64,000 nt of DNA from a virus (lineage: Duplodnaviria > Caudoviricetes): the IMG/VR virus record IMGVR_UViG_3300027820_000029, positions 14,039-78,038 of that record; one strand, written 5' to 3'. This document shows positions 3,724 through 12,143 of this stretch, piece after piece. The position numbers and the translations under genes were made by a program. The notes under the pieces are model-generated. The model made no database searches and had not been told where the DNA came from. It saw nothing but the letters and a program-made list of their open reading frames with translations. Position 1 is the first letter of the stretch, and every line of letters begins with the position of its first letter.

Positions 3724-4080
3724 TTATTCTTTAACTCCCATTTCAGCATTTACACTTTGGGACATTCTGACAATAGCTTCCCAATGTGCAGTCAAGTCTC
3801 GCAGAGAGGCATTTTTATAAGAAGGTAGTTCAACACCATATACATTTTCCATGGCGGTAATAACATCTTCTTTGTTAACCTTGTTAACAGTAGCAGAAGG
3901 TTTAGCTTTAGGTACATAAACCTTTTCTGCTACAAGTTTACCACGTACTTGAGGTACTGTAACTTCAAACTCCTTGGCTAGTGCTTTAACTACTGCACTG
4001 CGTGTAGCATAGTCAGCTTCCTTAGAAGCATTATAGGTATCTAGCATGTGGCTAGTTTGCTGTGTTGTAAAATTACTCAT
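3724..4080 (-). CDS. A2-like small putative DNA-binding protein, paralogue 2
   Basis: NFTTQQ...VRGKLVAEKVY...NKEDVI...YKNASLRDL pattern; strong RBS and its own promoter. Confidence 0.7.
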   Translation of the reverse strand: MSNFTTQQTSHMLDTYNASKEADYATRSAVVKALAKEFEVTVPQVRGKLVAEKVYVPKAKPSATVNKVNKEDVITAMENVYGVELPSYKNASLRDLTAHWEAIVRMSQSVNAEMGVKE

Positions 4081-5879: not shown

Positions 5880-6004
5880 TTGACCGCCGGTGATTGGCCA
5901 TGTTATACTGGTAGTAGCGTGCTCGCGCGAGCGGCGCCTATAAGAATTTTTTATGCCATTATAAAAAACTTTTGCTTGACAAGGCATCCAGCCTAGTGTA
6001 CCAT
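5880..6004 (+). promoter_or_regulatory. Two tandem orphan sigma70-type promoters
   Basis: TTGACC-N18-TATACT (5880-5909) and TTGACA-N17-TACCAT (5976-6004). Confidence 0.6.
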
Positions 6005-6114
6005 GGTATTGTGGGAGACTCGGGTCCTAGGGACGGCGCAATACCGTCAATAAATTGACGGTATTCTGGGGCAGCAGTATATTAGAATATTCTAATATAC
6101 TGCTATTCGAATGC

Positions 6115-6183
6115 AAAAAAAGGCCCCGCCAATTTTTTGGCGGAGCCTGGTTAAAAAGTGGCGGGGAAATTCTCCCCGCCGGA
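6115..6183 (-). terminator. Tandem terminator hairpins after the A2-like gene
   Basis: GGCGGGGA/TCCCCGCC and GGC.CCGCCAA/TTGGCGG.GCC stems with U runs on the minus strand. Confidence 0.7.
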
Positions 6184-6190
6184 TTAGCGA

Positions 6191-6607
6191 TTAACTGCTA
6201 AGATAGTTTGATACATCGTTATAGCGAGCCGCCATTGTATTGACGCTTTCGACATACACGATCAAAGCCGTTAAATCGGTCTTGTTGAGCTTCTCAGCGG
6301 AAACAAGGTTTAAACCTACCATCTCAACAAATTGCGCGGCCAAAACATCCTTTTTTGCTGGAGCAGCGCCGGTAACACTTGAAACCTTTTCTTTCGGCCG
6401 ATAGAGCTTCTCAAGCTCTCCAGTTGCGTTTTCAAAGGTCATAGGAGCAAGTTTAGCGATAACACCCTTCCAGGATTTTCCGAGATCCGCCGCAATCTGG
6501 CGAACAACAGAATCGCGCATTTCCTGATCTTCATCCCGTACCGCAGTATAGCGGTCACGAATTTCCGAAATCATAGTTTCGGTATAGTTCGGGGTTTTTG
6601 TAGCCAT
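6191..6607 (-). CDS. T5 A2-like pre-early DNA-binding protein
   Basis: NYTE...GVIAKL...LYRPKEKVSSVTGAAPAKK...EKLNKTDL resembles T5 A2 from memory; lies near the dmp-like gene. Confidence 0.65.
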   Translation of the reverse strand: MATKTPNYTETMISEIRDRYTAVRDEDQEMRDSVVRQIAADLGKSWKGVIAKLAPMTFENATGELEKLYRPKEKVSSVTGAAPAKKDVLAAQFVEMVGLNLVSAEKLNKTDLTALIVYVESVNTMAARYNDVSNYLSS

Positions 6608-6661
6608 AGTGCATTTTCTCCGGTAAATTCAGGTCGGGACCATTCCCGACCTGATGTAAAC

Positions 6662-6690
6662 ATTATATAGAAGTGTTAACCTGGTGTCAA
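6662..6690 (-). promoter_or_regulatory. sigma70-type promoter with a 5' hairpin
   Basis: TTGACA-N17-TATAAT, then an 11-bp stem TCAGGTCGGGA/TCCCGACCTGA. Confidence 0.85.
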
Positions 6691-6704
6691 CACTTTATTT
6701 CACT

Positions 6705-7430
6705 TTATTTTGCAATAAAGTGATTTTTCACTTGCATTTGTCTCCAGTCTGGTTTTTTCAGATCCACTAAATTTTTCAAAGCCCGACGTTTTGTAATGGC
6801 TCTCAAAATCGGTAACTCATAGTCTATAATATCCTCCAGAGCTGTATGTGGTTCGTTTGGCAAATCTGGGTTACCTAGCAAAAAACGTGCCATAATTTCA
6901 GCGTTAGCTTTATAAGACATATTGCCGAATTTTGTAGGATTATTAAAACCATGCACATCCAAAACAAATTCCCGATACTTTTTAGATTGCGCCCAAATAT
7001 CCGCAGCTGCGGCCCATAGACAAAATCGTTTTGAAAAACCCGTTAAATCAATTCCGGTTTTTTCACACTTGTCAACATCGAAAGGCAAGTTATACGCAGT
7101 CAAAAATGGGTCATAGTTTACTTTAACCCTATCTAACCAACGATTAATAGCCGATGCACTGGCTAACATACGCGAGCCACCTTCTAACATACGGGAATAA
7201 ACATCATACCGTTTTGACAAGCTGTCCCGATTCCAGATTGAGTCTACTGGAGCAGAGTTATCATAGAATAGTGGATGCGATTCCCGATTATTATAAACCC
7301 CGGCAACTAATACCGCACATTGTGCCGTTGTATTACCTTTACGATCAACCACCACAGCAGCAAAATCTGCTACTTTATCCGTCCGAGTTGTTTCTGTGTC
7401 AATAATACAAATAAACTGCTTTTTAGCCAT
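6705..7430 (-). CDS. DEDD/DnaQ-like 3'-5' exonuclease
   Basis: ExoI IIDTETT, ExoII AYNLPFD, ExoIII HTALED. Confidence 0.85.
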   Translation of the reverse strand: MAKKQFICIIDTETTRTDKVADFAAVVVDRKGNTTAQCAVLVAGVYNNRESHPLFYDNSAPVDSIWNRDSLSKRYDVYSRMLEGGSRMLASASAINRWLDRVKVNYDPFLTAYNLPFDVDKCEKTGIDLTGFSKRFCLWAAAADIWAQSKKYREFVLDVHGFNNPTKFGNMSYKANAEIMARFLLGNPDLPNEPHTALEDIIDYELPILRAITKRRALKNLVDLKKPDWRQMQVKNHFIAK

Positions 7431-7433
7431 AAT

Positions 7434-7916
7434 TTAATATCCTTGTTTTGACGGGGTGTATACCCCGACCGCAGAGAGATTATCGCACACCTTGCCTAGA
7501 TAGTCAAGGTTATCCTCAAAAAAAGTTATAGGTAAATCTCGAAACTGTTTAAGCTGTCGAAACATTGACAACCATTTAACCTTGAGTAACGCGCCGCTGG
7601 TATTTTGACCTTTTAGCCTACCGAAAATTTTATCTGGTATACCAAGGTGTTTAGCGATAAAATCCAGGTCTGGTTTTTTTAAAACCCGCGCAGTAGCGAT
7701 AACCACATAAATTTCAGGGTTGTCAATATCTTGACGGTATTTTTTTGCCAGTGGCAAAAGCGAATCCCTAGCGATTTTTTCTGGCGTGCTGTTTTTTCGC
7801 CAATACGCCAGGTCAATTTTCGTGCCACATGGCAAAGTTTTGTAACGATGTAGGCTACAAATTATCGTACCATCCAAATCATATACGTTAATTTTTTTAA
7901 GCATTCCAAACTCCAA
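7434..7916 (-). CDS. dmp: HAD-family deoxynucleoside-5'-monophosphatase, T5 Dmp-like
   Basis: YDLDGTIICSLHR, DSLLPL, IATARVL and FEDN match T5 Dmp motifs as recalled (WDLDGTIINSFHR, DTLLPL, ICTARLM). Confidence 0.8.
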   Translation of the reverse strand: MEFGMLKKINVYDLDGTIICSLHRYKTLPCGTKIDLAYWRKNSTPEKIARDSLLPLAKKYRQDIDNPEIYVVIATARVLKKPDLDFIAKHLGIPDKIFGRLKGQNTSGALLKVKWLSMFRQLKQFRDLPITFFEDNLDYLGKVCDNLSAVGVYTPSKQGY

Positions 7917-8109
7917 AACTGTTTGCTATCAGAAAGTAAGATTGTAACAGAAACAAGCTGTGTTGTCTAGTCTTTTTGAACAATATTAACAAAAAAAGAC
8001 AACTAATTATTCCTACAATAAATCCGCCAAAATAATGGCGACTAGAAAGTAGGCCAAAACCCACAGCGGCAAAAAACGTGCCAACATATTCAAAATATTT
8101 TTCATTCAT
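7897..8109 (-). CDS. Small multi-pass membrane protein
   Basis: Start moved to MNEKYF (GAGG 8 nt upstream); hydrophobic helices. Confidence 0.7.
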   Translation of the reverse strand: MNEKYFEYVGTFFAAVGFGLLSSRHYFGGFIVGIISCLFLLILFKKTRQHSLFLLQSYFLIANSFGVWNA

Positions 8110-8181
8110 AATCTGTGCCTCAATTCCAGAAACAGAATTATCGCATATCGCAATATCTTTGTATATACCCCATTTGGGGTA

Positions 8182-8313
8182 TTGACAACCCACAGGCGGC
8201 TGTGGTATAATGGCGCCTCCGTCAAAAATCTGGCACCATGCAAAATCTGTGCCAATTTATTTTGTCAATATCCACAAATAGGTATTGACACCAGGCAGCG
8301 GCTCCTGTATAAT
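8182..8313 (+). promoter_or_regulatory. Two tandem orphan sigma70-type promoters
   Basis: TTGACA-N18-TATAAT (8182-8211) and TTGACA-N17-TATAAT (8285-8313). Confidence 0.75.
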
Positions 8314-8378
8314 GAAAGTAGCGGATTCCCGCGGCGGCGCAAAAAAGCGTCAAGAAATTGACGCTTATGTTACAAAAT

Positions 8379-8404
8379 CTAGGGAGATAAATATATCTCC
8401 CTAG
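8379..8404 (-). terminator. Hairpin, probable terminator of the 8420-9224 operon
   Basis: 11-bp arms CTAGGGAGATA/TATCTCCCTAG followed by ATTTTG on the minus strand. Confidence 0.6.
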
Positions 8405-8419
8405 GAAAAGCAACAAATT

Positions 8420-8629
8420 TTATGCAAATTTAATGAAGCCCTTAAAATCTACCGCTAATTCGTATGGAGCATAATAAAATACTTCAGACACAAAATCATT
8501 TATATCTTCAAATTCGATCTCGAATGTTTCATCAATATCTTTATTTTCAGATTCAGAATTTTTCGATACCCAACATTTTCCATTTGAAATTGGGGTGTCA
8601 TGTTTAATATGTAAGTATAATTCTTTCAT
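8420..8629 (-). CDS. Acidic hypothetical protein
   Basis: ATGA overlap with the upstream gene. Confidence 0.65.
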   Translation of the reverse strand: MKELYLHIKHDTPISNGKCWVSKNSESENKDIDETFEIEFEDINDFVSEVFYYAPYELAVDFKGFIKFA

Positions 8630-8931
8630 TCATAAAACTCCTGATATGCTAGTCTACACCAGCGTTTAAAAATTTTTCCGTGGTTCCAGGCTTTACCATT
8701 TTCAGCTTGCCATACATGAATCATTTCATGCACCAGGGTATTGAATTTTTCCTGTTTTGATAGTGTTTCGGATATTCCTATAACCAATCCGCCGAGTTGC
8801 GTAGTTGTAAAACCATCTATTAAATAAGTGACATCAAATTGTTTTTTGCTACCATCAAATTTTATGATGTCAACACTAGGCAACTCGCTACCAAAAAGAC
8901 GGTCATTCACTTTGTTGTATAGCGAGCGCAT
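8626..8931 (-). CDS. SprT-like zinc metalloprotease domain protein
   Basis: TLVHEMIHVWQ...HGKIF motif; RBS GGAGG. Confidence 0.8.
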   Translation of the reverse strand: MRSLYNKVNDRLFGSELPSVDIIKFDGSKKQFDVTYLIDGFTTTQLGGLVIGISETLSKQEKFNTLVHEMIHVWQAENGKAWNHGKIFKRWCRLAYQEFYE

Positions 8932-8942
8932 AGTTCCTCCTT

Positions 8943-9224
8943 TTAGATAAAACCGTTTAGTGGGCCATAAACGAAGGTGGTGGGAATTGCCCGCGTTATT
9001 TCATTTTGCCAGTAAGTGAAGTAGTTCACCTTGCCGGATTTGTTTATCCACCGAAACTGAATTTCATCAGCTCCAAGGTCATGCTTGAGGGATTCCAAAT
9101 TTCGCTTACTGCAATAACAACCGCGCAGAATGTAAAAATCAATGCCAGAATTCCAATCAGAAAGAACATCTCTTTTCGTTTCATATTTTGCTCCATAAGC
9201 GGGTACCAAAGTGATTAAAGACAT
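8943..9224 (-). CDS. Hypothetical phage protein (MSLITLVPAYGAKY...)
   Basis: Start moved to 9224 on the basis of an AGGAGA RBS and the promoter at 9252-9280. Confidence 0.75.
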   Translation of the reverse strand: MSLITLVPAYGAKYETKRDVLSDWNSGIDFYILRGCYCSKRNLESLKHDLGADEIQFRWINKSGKVNYFTYWQNEITRAIPTTFVYGPLNGFI

Positions 9225-9240
9225 TGTGCAATCTCCTGTA

Positions 9241-9280
9241 ACTGAGAGGCTAGTATATACTAGCCTCTCAGTGATGTCAA
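9241..9280 (-). promoter_or_regulatory. sigma70 promoter embedded in a perfect 32-bp palindrome
   Basis: TTGACA-N17-TATACT; palindrome ACTGAGAGGCTAGTATATACTAGCCTCTCAGT at 9241-9272. Confidence 0.85.
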
Positions 9281-9492
9281 CTAATATTTTCCATTGCATC
9301 TTCAACGAAATATTTAGCTTCCCGTAGTCCACAATCGAATTCCCAACGAATAAGTTTAATTGCCTTAATTTTATCAAGTTTTCCGAGTTTAGCAGCAAAA
9401 CTGTAAAATAATTCAACATATTCTGGTGAACGATCTGTATCGAAACTTACATCATTCGGCAGATTTACCGTAGTTTTCAAATTTATATACAT
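9277..9492 (-). CDS. Protein with ribosomal L7/L12 C-terminal-like domain
   Basis: KIKAIKLIRWEFDCGLREAKYFVE matches the KI.vIK.vR...gL.eAK.lVe pattern. Confidence 0.7.
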   Translation of the reverse strand: MYINLKTTVNLPNDVSFDTDRSPEYVELFYSFAAKLGKLDKIKAIKLIRWEFDCGLREAKYFVEDAMENIS

Positions 9493-9509
9493 AACAATCT
9501 CCTGTAAGT

Positions 9510-9546
9510 GAGAGGCTAGTATATACTAGCCTCTCCTAGATGTCAA
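9510..9546 (-). promoter_or_regulatory. Second copy of the palindrome-embedded promoter
   Basis: 26-bp palindrome GAGAGGCTAGTATATACTAGCCTCTC; TTGACA-N17-TATACT. Confidence 0.85.
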
Positions 9547-9756
9547 TTAAAAGTTTTCAGGATTTACCCGGCGGAGCCAGGTAGCAACGGTTTCAGGATA
9601 GATCGCTGTTGCCAGCGATTCAAGTGCTGTAGCATCTTTAAACTCGCTGCGCTTGAAAGTAAAGTAGCTTTTTAGCGCCTTATTTCGACGAGTGTTATTT
9701 TCCGCCAGGTTGCGATCTTTACGGGTGGATTTTTTGGTACAGGTCTTTTTGCTCAT
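9547..9756 (-). CDS. Small basic hypothetical protein
   Basis: RBS GGAGAG; promoter TTGACA-N17-TATACT at 9809-9837. Confidence 0.7.
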   Translation of the reverse strand: MSKKTCTKKSTRKDRNLAENNTRRNKALKSYFTFKRSEFKDATALESLATAIYPETVATWLRRVNPENF

Positions 9757-9833
9757 AATTTACTCTCCGCCGAATTTGTGTGCCAGATAAAATATCGCCA
9801 CTGAGATAAGTATAGTCAAAATTTCATTCATTG

Positions 9834-9920
9834 TCAAGGCCCTTTGTAAAGTATTTTAAAAACAAGCCAACCTACCGGCAAACTTGCGAGTGCAATAAAT
9901 AAACCAGCTAAAATTTCCAT
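9834..9920 (-). CDS. 28-aa single-pass membrane microprotein MEILAGLFIALASLPVGWLVFKILYKGP
   Basis: Read by hand; RBS GGAGA; own promoter TTGACA-N17-TATAAT at 9947-9975. Confidence 0.65.
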   Translation of the reverse strand: MEILAGLFIALASLPVGWLVFKILYKGP

Positions 9921-9973
9921 TCTTTAGTTCTCCAAATCAAAGATATATTATAACAAAATTCGGATCGCTTGTC

Positions 9974-10030
9974 AACATCGGTTTTTAACATCGCTTTTTA
10001 ACATCGGTTTATAACATCGGTTTATAACAT
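9974..10030. repeat. 13-bp tandem repeat AACATCGSTTTWT, four copies plus a partial
   Basis: Units start at 9974, 9987, 10000, 10013. Confidence 0.9.
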
Positions 10031-10357
10031 GTCAATTTTTTGACACACCGTCAATTTTTTGACACACCGTCAATATTTTGACACATGCAAGAATCATGCC
10101 AGCGTCAAAATATTGACACATGCAAAAATCGTGCCAACCTGGCACCGCCAATTTGTTGACGCCCGCGCTCCCCTCTAGGCCACCTCCCCATATGCTGAAT
10201 TGAGGCCCATTGTAGCACGGATTACAGCCAGGCACAACCCCTTTTGGAAAATAAATATTGGCACATTTCTTGCTAATGCAATTATCGTGCCAGGTCCGCC
10301 GGCGCTTTTCATAAAATGTTTTTATGGTGGTATAAAAAAATTTAGTGCATAAAGTTG

Positions 10358-10386
10358 TTGCTATGTATACGCGGTTCCTGTATCAT
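10358..10386 (+). promoter_or_regulatory. Orphan sigma70-type promoter
   Basis: TTGCTA-N17-TATCAT followed by GAAAGTAGCG, as after the 8285 promoter. Confidence 0.6.
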
Positions 10387-10510
10387 GAAAGTAGCGTGCC
10401 CTGCTCGGGCGCCGTCAACAAGTTGACGGTATAAGGAGCGTCAATTTCTTGACGCATTTTGGTGCAAGGGCGCCAAAAACCCCTTGAAAATCAAGGGGTT
10501 ATGAAGCAGT

Positions 10511-10708
10511 CTACCAAGCTGAATATCCGGGTTCCGTGATGTAAATTTCGCGGCACAAGTCATCAGTGTAGCCATGATCTGGCATGATTATTGCATCAGA
10601 TGGAAGATCCATCTGCTCACGCACATAGTCGCAAGCTGCCGCCCAAGTGTCAAATTCTTGACGGTAGGTTCCATCTTCTGCGTTCAGAACTGTAAGGTAT
10701 TTCGACAT
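10511..10708 (-). CDS. Small acidic hypothetical protein
   Basis: Start moved to MSKYL (GAGG upstream). Confidence 0.65.
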   Translation of the reverse strand: MSKYLTVLNAEDGTYRQEFDTWAAACDYVREQMDLPSDAIIMPDHGYTDDLCREIYITEPGYSAW

Positions 10709-10768
10709 AGTTTTGTTGCCTCTTTGAAAGTTGCCACCGCCAGGAATTTGACGGTGGCTTAGTGTCAA

Positions 10769-11032
10769 CTAAATGGCGGTCCAGCTTGAGCGGTCGATCA
10801 TAGACGGCATGTCGCGCGCTGGCACAAAATTAACATGACCGTCAAGAATACGGCAGAACCAGCCGTCCAAAAAACCTTTCTTTACCATGCTAATAACATG
10901 GGTTTTACGCGCCTGTTCAGAGCCCATGAAAAACTTAAAACTTTTGACTGGTAAGGTAGTCAAAATTTTGACGGTAGCCTTTCGTCCAGCAACGGTCTGT
11001 TGGTGGGTACATGTCGATTTGTATGTGTTCAT
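10769..11032 (-). CDS. Hypothetical protein
   Basis: RBS GGAG; in operon. Confidence 0.65.
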   Translation of the reverse strand: MNTYKSTCTHQQTVAGRKATVKILTTLPVKSFKFFMGSEQARKTHVISMVKKGFLDGWFCRILDGHVNFVPARDMPSMIDRSSWTAI

Positions 11033-11035
11033 ATA

Positions 11036-11155
11036 TTAGACTCCAAAAATTGAGCTGAGGATAACGGCAATGGGAGCGCCTAGAAAAGCACTCAAGAAAA
11101 TCACAAGAAACTTCCAATCACACTTGGCATGAAATTTGCTGTAGTCATAAACCAT
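11036..11155 (-). CDS. 39-aa membrane microprotein MVYDYSKFHAKCDWKFLVIFLSAFLGAPIAVILSSIFGV
   Basis: Read by hand; RBS GAGGT; promoter TTGACA-N17-TAACAT at 11207-11235. Confidence 0.6.
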   Translation of the reverse strand: MVYDYSKFHAKCDWKFLVIFLSAFLGAPIAVILSSIFGV

Positions 11156-11334
11156 GGTAATACCTCTGGTAGGGCGGGTGGTGGTGGTTTTTTGTAACAT
11201 GCGAGCATGTTAATCCTATTTTCTATTCTTGTCAAGCTTTAAACGCATTGAAATAAAAATAAATTCTAGTTTCTTTTTATGTGCCCATAAAAAACTTTTG
11301 GGGCATATTTTGTGTCAATATCTCTAATGGGGTA

Positions 11335-11364
11335 TTGACAAGTAAGGGATAGCTGTGGTAAAAT
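11335..11364 (+). promoter_or_regulatory. Orphan sigma70-type promoter
   Basis: TTGACA-N18-TAAAAT then TGGCGCC; same layout as the 4884 and 8182 promoters. Confidence 0.65.
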
Positions 11365-11386
11365 TGGCGCCGCCAAATTTTTGACG

Positions 11387-11500
11387 CATAAGCTACGCTT
11401 ATGCGCGCATAGAAACATCCTATTTGACGTCAAAAATCTGGCACATAAGCTCAGCTTATGCGCGCATAGAAACATCCTATTTGACGTCAAATTCCTGGCG
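11387..11500. repeat. 57-bp tandem duplication built from small palindromes
   Basis: Units at 11387 and 11444 each contain CATAAGC..GCTTATG, ATGCGCGCAT and TTGACGTCAA. Confidence 0.9.
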
Positions 11501-11680
11501 GCGCTGTTCGCGCCTGGCGTTATGACGCCAGGGCCTCCGGCAGGGTGGAAGCCAGGCCAGCGGGCCTGGCATGCTTTTTGACTTGCAAAAGCTATGCCAA
11601 TATTTATTTTCTGAAAAGGGTTGTAATGCTCAGCCAGGCTGTTATACTGCACTCTCACCCACACAGAAAAGGACCGAAAA

Positions 11681-11899
11681 ATGAGCATATCCGTCAAAAT
11701 CGTAGAACACGCCGCGCACCATTGCTTCCAGGATGCTATCCGCATCAACACCTTTCGTGAGTGGGAAGAATGCCATCACCGGCTGTCGGGGATGGTAACC
11801 TTGGCAATCTGGGCAGACGCCAGCCGTAGCGCAAAAACCACACTACAATTATTGCGAGACATCGCAATGGAACGCAAATGGATGACTTTTGACGCTTAG
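11681..11899 (+). CDS. Hypothetical protein, the only credible plus-strand ORF in this segment
   Basis: RBS AAGGA; TTGTAA-N16-TATACT at 11621-11648. Confidence 0.55.
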   Translation: MSISVKIVEHAAHHCFQDAIRINTFREWEECHHRLSGMVTLAIWADASRSAKTTLQLLRDIAMERKWMTFDA

Positions 11900-12143
11900 C
11901 GTCAAAAGTTTGACCACCCGTCAAATCTTTGACGGGTGGGGGCGGTTATCGGACTTGGTCCGAGGCTCCTCGGACCTCACTACCCCACGCGTAAACGATA
12001 CAAGGTTTTTGAGAAACTACTACAAGGTGTATAAGATTTTTGAGAAACCAAGGTATATTTTTTGCATTGATTTTAGAGAGCTAAAATAAAATATTAACTT
12101 TAATATGCTAATCTACACCTAGCCTAAAAAGTATCAAGTGGGA

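Follow-up and report, generated by a model that had tools for sequence, protein, structure and literature searches.

FleQ/FlrA is the cyclic di-GMP (c-di-GMP)-sensing, sigma-54 enhancer-binding master regulator that governs flagellar and biofilm genes. The FleQ box is 14 bp long and consists of GTCAAT/ATTGAC repeats parted by two A/T positions (PMC10723142; PMC6120874), with GTCaNTAAAtTGAC as the consensus in Pseudomonas aeruginosa (PMC6120874). Sigma-54 motifs can have such boxes on either side, and where boxes are duplicated, with one of them covering the start site, they act with FleN to repress sigma-70 promoters. We analyzed a window of 64,000 nucleotides, bases 14039-78038 of the 78,038-base IMG/VR record IMGVR_UViG_3300027820_000029 (63% complete), from what its genes indicate is a distant T5-like siphovirus, and found thirteen exact copies of the pattern GTCAANNNNTTGAC (GTCAA-N4-TTGAC) within a block at 6-12 kb. 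We propose, with belief and doubt about evenly balanced, that these boxes would serve as sites for a host enhancer-binding protein of the FleQ/FlrA class that controls sigma-54, and some sigma-70, promoters of the phage.

A pattern scan returned every one of the thirteen exact boxes listed in the original prediction (6046, 7722, 8349, 10031, 10050, 10069, 10104, 10414, 10440, 10649, 10959, 11901 and 11920) and none outside 6046-11933 in the whole 78,038-base record, which extends the earlier impression that the rest of the window is free of them. In 100 dinucleotide-preserving shuffles of the sequence, the box occurred 0.07 times on average and at most once, in agreement with a previous hand estimate of well under one chance copy, and the reversed pattern has no match in the record. 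The motif is confined to the block and not equally frequent across the genome. Half-sites themselves are enriched there, with 34 GTCAA and 29 TTGAC in the 6-12 kb bins, but these densities predict only ∼0.16 chance pairs at the correct spacing and so cannot account for 13 boxes. All seven variant boxes reported earlier were recovered as well, two of them one base away from where they had been placed (10739 instead of 10738 and 11429 instead of 11428); three have one mismatch (7556, 10147 and 11372) and four have two (8221, 10739, 11429 and 11486). The block holds every match with zero or one mismatch, while 16 further two-mismatch matches are spread across the other 58 kb.

The extended consensus of the phage boxes is (C/T)GTCAA-wwww-TTGAC(G/A), with spacers that are mostly A/T, and the copy at 6046-6059, GTCAATAAATTGAC, equals the published P. 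aeruginosa consensus (PMC6120874); the original prediction had set the two side by side. The boxes resemble those of the flagellar class II and pel/psl/cdrA promoters of P. aeruginosa in being 14-bp pseudopalindromes with GTCAA/TTGAC arms and an A/T-rich center, in lying on either side of sigma-54 -24/-12 motifs, and in having a member on or near a start site, as FleQ pairs do over sigma-70 starts. They differ in their setting, the pre-early DNA of a lytic phage, and in their density, since 6 kb contain 13 exact copies, three of them in a tandem array with a 19-bp period. They probably differ in host as well, which is not known to belong to Pseudomonas and, given a phage GC content of ∼33%, is unlikely to do so.

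The half-sites of the boxes are constant, the 4-nt spacer is variable, and the two variant classes that recur in the block (GCCAA..TTGAC and GTCAA..CTGGC, the latter in four copies) are not compensatory, which argues for a protein site on duplex DNA and not for a hairpin. We consider it extremely improbable that the palindromes act as 5' RNA stem-loops or terminators of short plus-strand transcripts, or as DNA cruciforms, instead of as protein sites. Some boxes do extend to stems of 7-9 bp, the stretch at 10438-10455 scores as terminator-like, and relatives of the phage hold long perfect hairpins of varied sequence after a TATAAT-GGCGCC element, even within one phage (L026). Folding, however, does not need thirteen identical 5-bp arms, the boxes directly after GGCGCC (8221 and 11372) are unable to form good stems, and a search of the block against Rfam gave only sub-threshold chance matches.

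Motifs of the form TGGCAC-N5-TTGCA stood out on reading the sequence, and we scanned the 78-kb genome for the strict sigma-54 promoter pattern TGGCAY-N5-TTGCW. It has nine matches, against 0.11 expected, and all nine fall between 6877 and 11599; relaxing the -12 element adds a tenth, also in the block. The coding strand of the block has six of the strict matches, and seven matches if the relaxed one is counted. The match TGGCACAGATTTTGCA at 8239-8254 (-) precedes an operon of a membrane-protein gene, dmp and an exonuclease gene, for which we found no strong sigma-70 promoter on the coding strand near 8239. The exact box at 8349-8362 is centered at ∼-128 from the predicted start of this promoter and at +29 from a plus-strand sigma-70 promoter at 8285-8313, while the variant box GTCAAAAATCTGGC at 8221-8234 is centered on the predicted start and follows the TATAAT-GGCGCC of a second plus-strand promoter, at 8182-8211.

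Boxes and sigma-54 matches are also interleaved further into the block. Two matches at 10086-10101 (-) and 10121-10136 (-) each have an exact box centered on the predicted start, at 10069 and 10104-10117, and together they form a 35-bp repeat unit of a box followed by ACATGCAA-N5-xxTGCCA, that is, a box plus a sigma-54 site. The first of these boxes closes the 19-bp tandem array at 10031-10082 (10031, 10050 and 10069), for which a repeat of period 19 and 2.9 copies over 10031-10085 bears out the earlier description, and a variant box lies nearby at 10147-10160. Two exact boxes 26 bp apart, 10414 and 10440 (10414-10453), lie at -154/-180 from a sigma-54 match at 10277 (-), at -186/-160 from another at 10580-10595 (+), and at +21/+47 from a plus-strand sigma-70 promoter at 10358-10386; the sole integration host factor (IHF)-consensus site of the block, AATCAAGGGGTTA at 10489-10501, lies between them and the 10580 match. 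The 10277 match is one half of a palindromic sigma-54 pair with 10259 (+), at 10259-10292, which is located inside an open reading frame (ORF) for a 45-amino-acid membrane peptide (10175-10312, -) and is kept at the nucleotide level in the related loci L010, L012, L074, L075 and L079, despite protein identities of 41-55% elsewhere. The peptide itself is hydrophobic and conserved in relatives, with a GTIIALA motif.

The exact box at 10959-10972 is at -186 from a sigma-54 match at 11125-11140 (+), and two exact boxes 19 bp apart, 11901 and 11920 (11901-11933), fall at -334/-354 relative to 11584-11599 (-), the sigma-54 promoter match TGGCATAGCTTTTGCA on the terS-proximal side of the block. The latter boxes are just 3' of a plus-strand ORF (11681-11899) and ∼270 bp before terS. 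A match at 6877-6892 (-) lies within the exonuclease gene, and the same 15-mer occurs again at 8069-8083 (-). Three exact boxes are within coding sequence, as originally described: the one at 7722-7735 in dmp, which also has a one-mismatch variant at 7556-7569, and those at 10649-10662 and 10959-10972 in two small orphan ORFs accepted as genes (10511-10768, -, and 10769-11032, -). A variant box accompanies the former orphan-ORF box at 10739-10752. Three further variants, 11372, 11429 and 11486 (11372-11499), lie within two 57-bp tandem repeats.

The strand opposite the genes carries its own series of promoters. The consensus sigma-70 promoters at 8182-8211 (+) and 8285-8313 (+) belong to a clade-wide module, TTGACA-17-TATAAT-GGCGCC-palindrome, of which the window has further copies at 5880-5909, 5976-6004, 10358-10386 and 11335-11364 (+). 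After an A-rich UP element, the module reads cTTGACA-17-TAtAAT, 0-4 nt, an invariant GGCGCC at the start site, and palindrome. Of 81 sequences, 76 carry it, on the strand that faces the exonuclease and pre-early genes. What follows GGCGCC in the window is either a variant box (8221, or 11372, which comes directly after the TAAAAT-t-GGCGCC of the 11335-11364 promoter) or an exact box slightly further on; the box at 6046, for example, lies ∼35 nt 3' of the start of the 5976-6004 promoter. The strong coding-strand sigma-70 promoters of the pre-early genes, at 9837, 9546, 9280 and 6690, are without a box, and the box can therefore be no general operator of pre-early genes. We note that the module often ends in a terminator and would give transcripts of ∼60-120 nt without an ORF.

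We then asked how the combination of box and sigma-54 promoter is distributed in cellular genomes, scanning 185,579 species of bacteria and archaea, each represented by a single genome, for box-N60-90-TGGCAC-N5-TTGC, with a composition-matched control in which the half-sites were reversed (AACTG-N4-CAGTT). The composite occurs at no fewer than 120 loci, and the control at 35 in the entire collection, near the chance estimate of ∼34. Among the matches listed, the 77 first ORFs downstream include 10 sigma-54 activators with an HTH_8 domain, 7 flagellar rod proteins, 5 MotA, 3 FliL, 2 FliM, 3 sigma-70-family proteins, 3 GGDEF and 3 PilZ proteins, whereas the 27 downstream ORFs of the control include no flagellar protein, no sigma-54 activator and 1 GGDEF protein. 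A preference for C at -1 and for G at +14 is common to the bacterial boxes (among the matches listed) and the phage boxes. The gaps from box to promoter in the listed bacterial matches cluster at ∼63, 75 and 85 nt, a pattern suggestive of helical phasing, in which the face of the helix matters. When a FleQ-type box stands ∼60-90 bp upstream of a sigma-54 promoter, it is a flagellar signature in genomes far beyond Pseudomonas.

Relatives of the phage were collected as 80 loci from an alignment-based scan of IMG/VR (L009-L088); single-protein searches of IMG/VR with the exonuclease or terL found no close relatives, and the closest homologues on metagenomic contigs are 76-81% identical. The pre-early regions of these loci hold ∼35 strict sigma-54 matches in 1.1 Mb, about 60-fold more than the ∼0.5 expected by an estimate from pattern degeneracy, and the matches are mostly on the coding strand. 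Many of them follow, at a fixed distance, a conserved element with WATCAA-N4-TTR, the IHF consensus. The GTCAA-N4-TTGAC box is present in two of the lineages, L012-15 and L075, whose exonucleases are 55% and 41% identical to that of the window. On the coding strand both have a box, then 67-68 nt that include an IHF-like site, then TGGCAC-N5-CTGCT, and then a second box just 3', a layout parallel to 8349, 8239 and 8221 in the window. This order resembles that of canonical promoters such as glnAp2, nifH and Pu, with an activator palindrome near -100, an IHF-consensus site and a TGGCAC-N5-TTGC promoter, but differs from them in its phage pre-early setting, in the second box on or just after the start, and in the strong opposite-strand sigma-70 promoters that are interleaved with it.

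The conserved layout also bears on whether the boxes are a decoy array and nothing else, in which high-affinity sites, 13-20 of them or twice that number should the block be a terminal repeat, would soak up the flagellar regulator and stop flagellar synthesis. The high copy number with its tandem array would suit such a role, as would the boxes without a nearby promoter and the approximately doubled sequencing depth of the block, which fits two copies per genome. We nevertheless regard it as very unlikely, because box, IHF site and sigma-54 promoter keep their arrangement in relatives with only two boxes, which argues for promoter control, and because a decoy leaves the confinement of boxes and sigma-54 promoters to the same block unexplained.

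We hypothesize instead that a dimeric Fis-type helix-turn-helix domain of the host regulator would read the boxes on double-stranded DNA while host sigma-54 RNA polymerase waits as closed complexes at the ten -24/-12 promoters of the block. The activator bound at the boxes, aided by IHF-type bending, would open these complexes, with boxes at -128 to -186 acting as enhancers, as 8349 may do for 8239, the promoter of the dmp operon. Where boxes sit on start sites (8221, 10069 and 10104), or at +1 to +47 after strong sigma-70 promoters of the opposite strand, the promoters concerned would be occluded or poised, much as FleQ occludes or poises the pel promoter. The net result would be to tie the first transcription of the phage to the motile, low-c-di-GMP state of its host. 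Both the protein that binds and the sign of its effect at each site, activation or repression, are what we infer from these arrangements. The 78-kb record (63% complete) contains no PF00158 sigma-54 activator domain of its own, and the proposal consequently requires a host protein.

Several observations weigh against this proposal. It assumes that the host has rpoN, fleQ or flrA, and ihf, and in chromatin immunoprecipitation sequencing of Pseudomonas the FleQ consensus alone is a poor predictor of binding (PMC6120874). The boxes at 6046, 7722 and 11901/11920 have no sigma-54 site at an enhancer-like distance. Three of the sigma-54 matches are antisense to ORFs (10259; 10580, opposite 10511-10768; and 11125, opposite 11036-11200) and two are intragenic, so that some matches may be binding sites without productive transcription. 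The bacterial composite has a total given only as at least 120, so its enrichment over the control is a lower bound. L022 and L063 carry a different palindrome, GCTATCA-N3-TGATAGC, in 8 copies per locus directly after the TATAAT-GGCGCC module, and other relatives hold multi-copy palindromes of their own at comparable positions. In L074 (∼1800-1830) and L079 (∼640-670), a CRP-like GTGA-N6-TCAC stands where their close relative L075 has its box, upstream of the same sigma-54 promoter. Such differing palindromes are the pattern expected of a phage-specific binder, although the CRP-like replacement suggests that these positions may hold sites for host global regulators. The original prediction that the phage recruits a host FleQ/FlrA-type regulator is thus strengthened by the identity of the box with the FleQ box, its place among the only sigma-54 matches of the genome and the flagellar and c-di-GMP composite in bacteria, and weakened by the phage-specific palindromes of relatives.

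A phage-encoded binder is accordingly the rival that we take most seriously, as possible if rather unlikely. The boxes would then be operators or anchoring sites for a dimeric DNA-binding pre-early protein that shuts off or orders pre-early transcription or holds the first-entering DNA in place, and their likeness to FleQ boxes would be coincidental. The palindromes of relatives, placed like the boxes directly after the TATAAT-GGCGCC module, look like co-evolving pairs of protein and site; many boxes occupy positions typical of operators, either over start sites or +1 to +47 from promoters; three are intragenic; and the block encodes a homologue (6191-6607) of A2, a known DNA-binding pre-early protein of T5. 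Besides this homologue, the candidates are orphan small proteins (9547-9756 and 11681-11899); Pfam and PHROGs identified no DNA-binding domain in the small ORFs of the block. The three box-bearing lineages, however, have only terS, dmp, exonuclease and A2 in common, and the protein comparison found no protein specific to them. A2 similarity does not track the box, since the A2 of the window is 42% identical to that of the box-less L017 and 31% identical to that of the box-bearing L012. We therefore set A2 aside as the specific box binder, although such lack of covariation in similarity and presence is weak evidence. Multi-copy palindromes are absent from the cultured T5-like phages that carry A2, and the strongest coding-strand pre-early promoters are boxless, as described above. 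The match of box, flanks and sigma-54 distance to the bacterial flagellar-regulon signature would also be unexpected for a private phage operator.

Three other explanations of the motif were tried and rejected. A Fis site needs G-N13-C over 15 bp. Overlapping divergent -35 hexamers have a matching -10 only at 6055-6083. The LuxO site, TTGCA-N3-TGCAA, is unlike the box; it resembles a palindrome of the related loci L020 and L025, TGTTGCA-N4-TGCAACA, which is present in five copies (4695, 5048, 8798, 11093 and 12242) and which we take to be a likeness of the LuxO site with one extra spacer base. This palindrome may be another host-regulator box.

The gene content of the block points to a counterpart of the T5 pre-early region. 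The major tail protein of the phage shares 33-35% identity with its counterparts in T5-like phages of Vibrio, Klebsiella and Proteus. Within the block, dmp (7434-7916, -), for the deoxynucleoside-5'-monophosphatase that is pre-early in T5, is 31-36% identical to the annotated dmp of Vibrio and Aeromonas T5-like phages, and the A2 homologue (6191-6607, -; 138 amino acids) aligns with the A2 proteins of T5, Ceto, KIT04 and TS3 with an hhalign probability of 96.8% and an E value of 2.2e-10. Between them lies the gene for a DEDDh-type exonuclease of 241 amino acids (6705-7430, -), which marks a very large family of metagenomic phages and has 2,367 homologues in metagenomes. The block also contains many small genes, and its GC fraction is 0.38-0.46, compared to ∼0.3 in the flanks. 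In four marine-sediment runs, possibly the source samples, unitig depth is 1.7-2.2x that of the flanks at 6075-9270 and 1.25-2x at 9243-11426; contig depth is a weak measure, and the doubling fits a collapsed terminal repeat but is not proof of one.

Like the first-step-transfer region of T5, the block thus combines dmp, A2, small genes, strong sigma-70 promoters, and dense noncoding repeats and palindromes; its depth of ∼2x would fit a terminal repeat. Unlike T5, it has a different gene order relative to terS. Searches by tblastn with A1 of T5 and Ceto gave a best E value of 0.2 in the 78-kb record (63% complete), which is to say no A1 homologue, and in place of a T5-type stop signal with paired DnaA boxes we found no cluster but two isolated TTWTNCACA matches in or beside the block. 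With neither of them found, the block is pre-early-like and not a copy of the T5 arrangement. The earlier statement that the boxes are confined to first-entering DNA therefore holds as far as a pre-early-like block with dmp and an A2 homologue is concerned; first entry itself is deduced from homology, no A1 homologue or DnaA-box cluster was found, and boxes 11901/11920 are outside the ∼2x-depth stretch. T5 itself has neither the box nor a sigma-54 match. Three other cultured T5-like phages, Ceto and KIT04 (Vibrio) and TS3 (Aeromonas), resemble the window in having two strict sigma-54 matches each in the pre-early/terminal-repeat region but differ from it in lacking a box array, with a single GTCAA-N4-TTGAC copy in TS3.

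Lytic phages are thought to begin infection with sigma-70 promoters or with polymerases of their own, and we found no report in the literature of a lytic phage that relies for its first genes on sigma-54 together with an enhancer-binding protein of the host. If FleQ/FlrA-class control is correct, infection would be gated by host motility and c-di-GMP state, which would link phage takeover directly, at the molecular level, to the switch from planktonic to biofilm life. A more elaborate version, which we think distinctly unlikely as a whole, joins three parts. The host flagellar regulator would act as a c-di-GMP-sensing strand switch on the first-entering DNA, in motile cells firing the leftward sigma-54 pre-early operons while sitting on the rightward sigma-70 promoters, with the reverse in sessile cells; the 13-20 boxes per copy would at the same time drain the regulator from the flagellar regulon; and the pre-early regions of a large T5-like clade that includes Ceto and KIT04 would have sigma-54 promoters as a general feature, one so far unreported. 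Although the present phage is uncultured, the sigma-54 sites in the pre-early DNA of the cultured Ceto, KIT04 and TS3 leave the idea open to work with laboratory strains. In a Salmonella screen, rpoN, himA and himD mutants were found to resist a T5-like phage, which its authors explain through RpoS.

The DNA comes from marine-sediment metagenomes, and no RNA data set is listed as containing the stretch. Relatives of the exonuclease occur in metagenome-assembled genomes whose bins point to inconsistent taxa. A search for tRNA genes, made for host identification, found none, and a GC-richer tailspike gene has no close relative among the genomes searched. Searches of the block and the late region by blastn and megablast against 50,697 phage records returned no match.

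Several further features lie in and around the block. Outside the GC-rich part, a second A2-like paralogue of 118 amino acids (3724-4080, -) is 37% identical to the A2-like protein of L012. The 57-bp tandem repeats at 11371-11499 each consist of a variant box, a palindrome GCGCATAAGC-N3-GCTTATGCGC and ATAGAAACATCCTATTTGAC; the unitigs of all runs break there, and there the ∼2x depth stops. At 9974-10030, between the box array and a consensus promoter at 9975-9947 (-), a 13-bp unit, AACATCGGTTTAT, is present in 4.4 tandem copies, and in run X1 strain variants of the array show up as a loose end at 10049. There are two copies of a perfect 27-bp palindrome, TGAGAGGCTAGTATATACTAGCCTCTCA (9244-9270 and 9509-9535), each over the -10 and start of a strong coding-strand promoter (9280 and 9546) within a 65-bp repeat; it forms a second, separate operator-like element. 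In Ceto (480-750) and KIT04 (2590-2870), two convergent sigma-54 matches flank ∼230 bp of terminal-repeat DNA that contains TTATCCACA DnaA boxes and CTGTATATTTATACAG LexA-box-like palindromes, with arrays of TTTGCACC direct repeats upstream.

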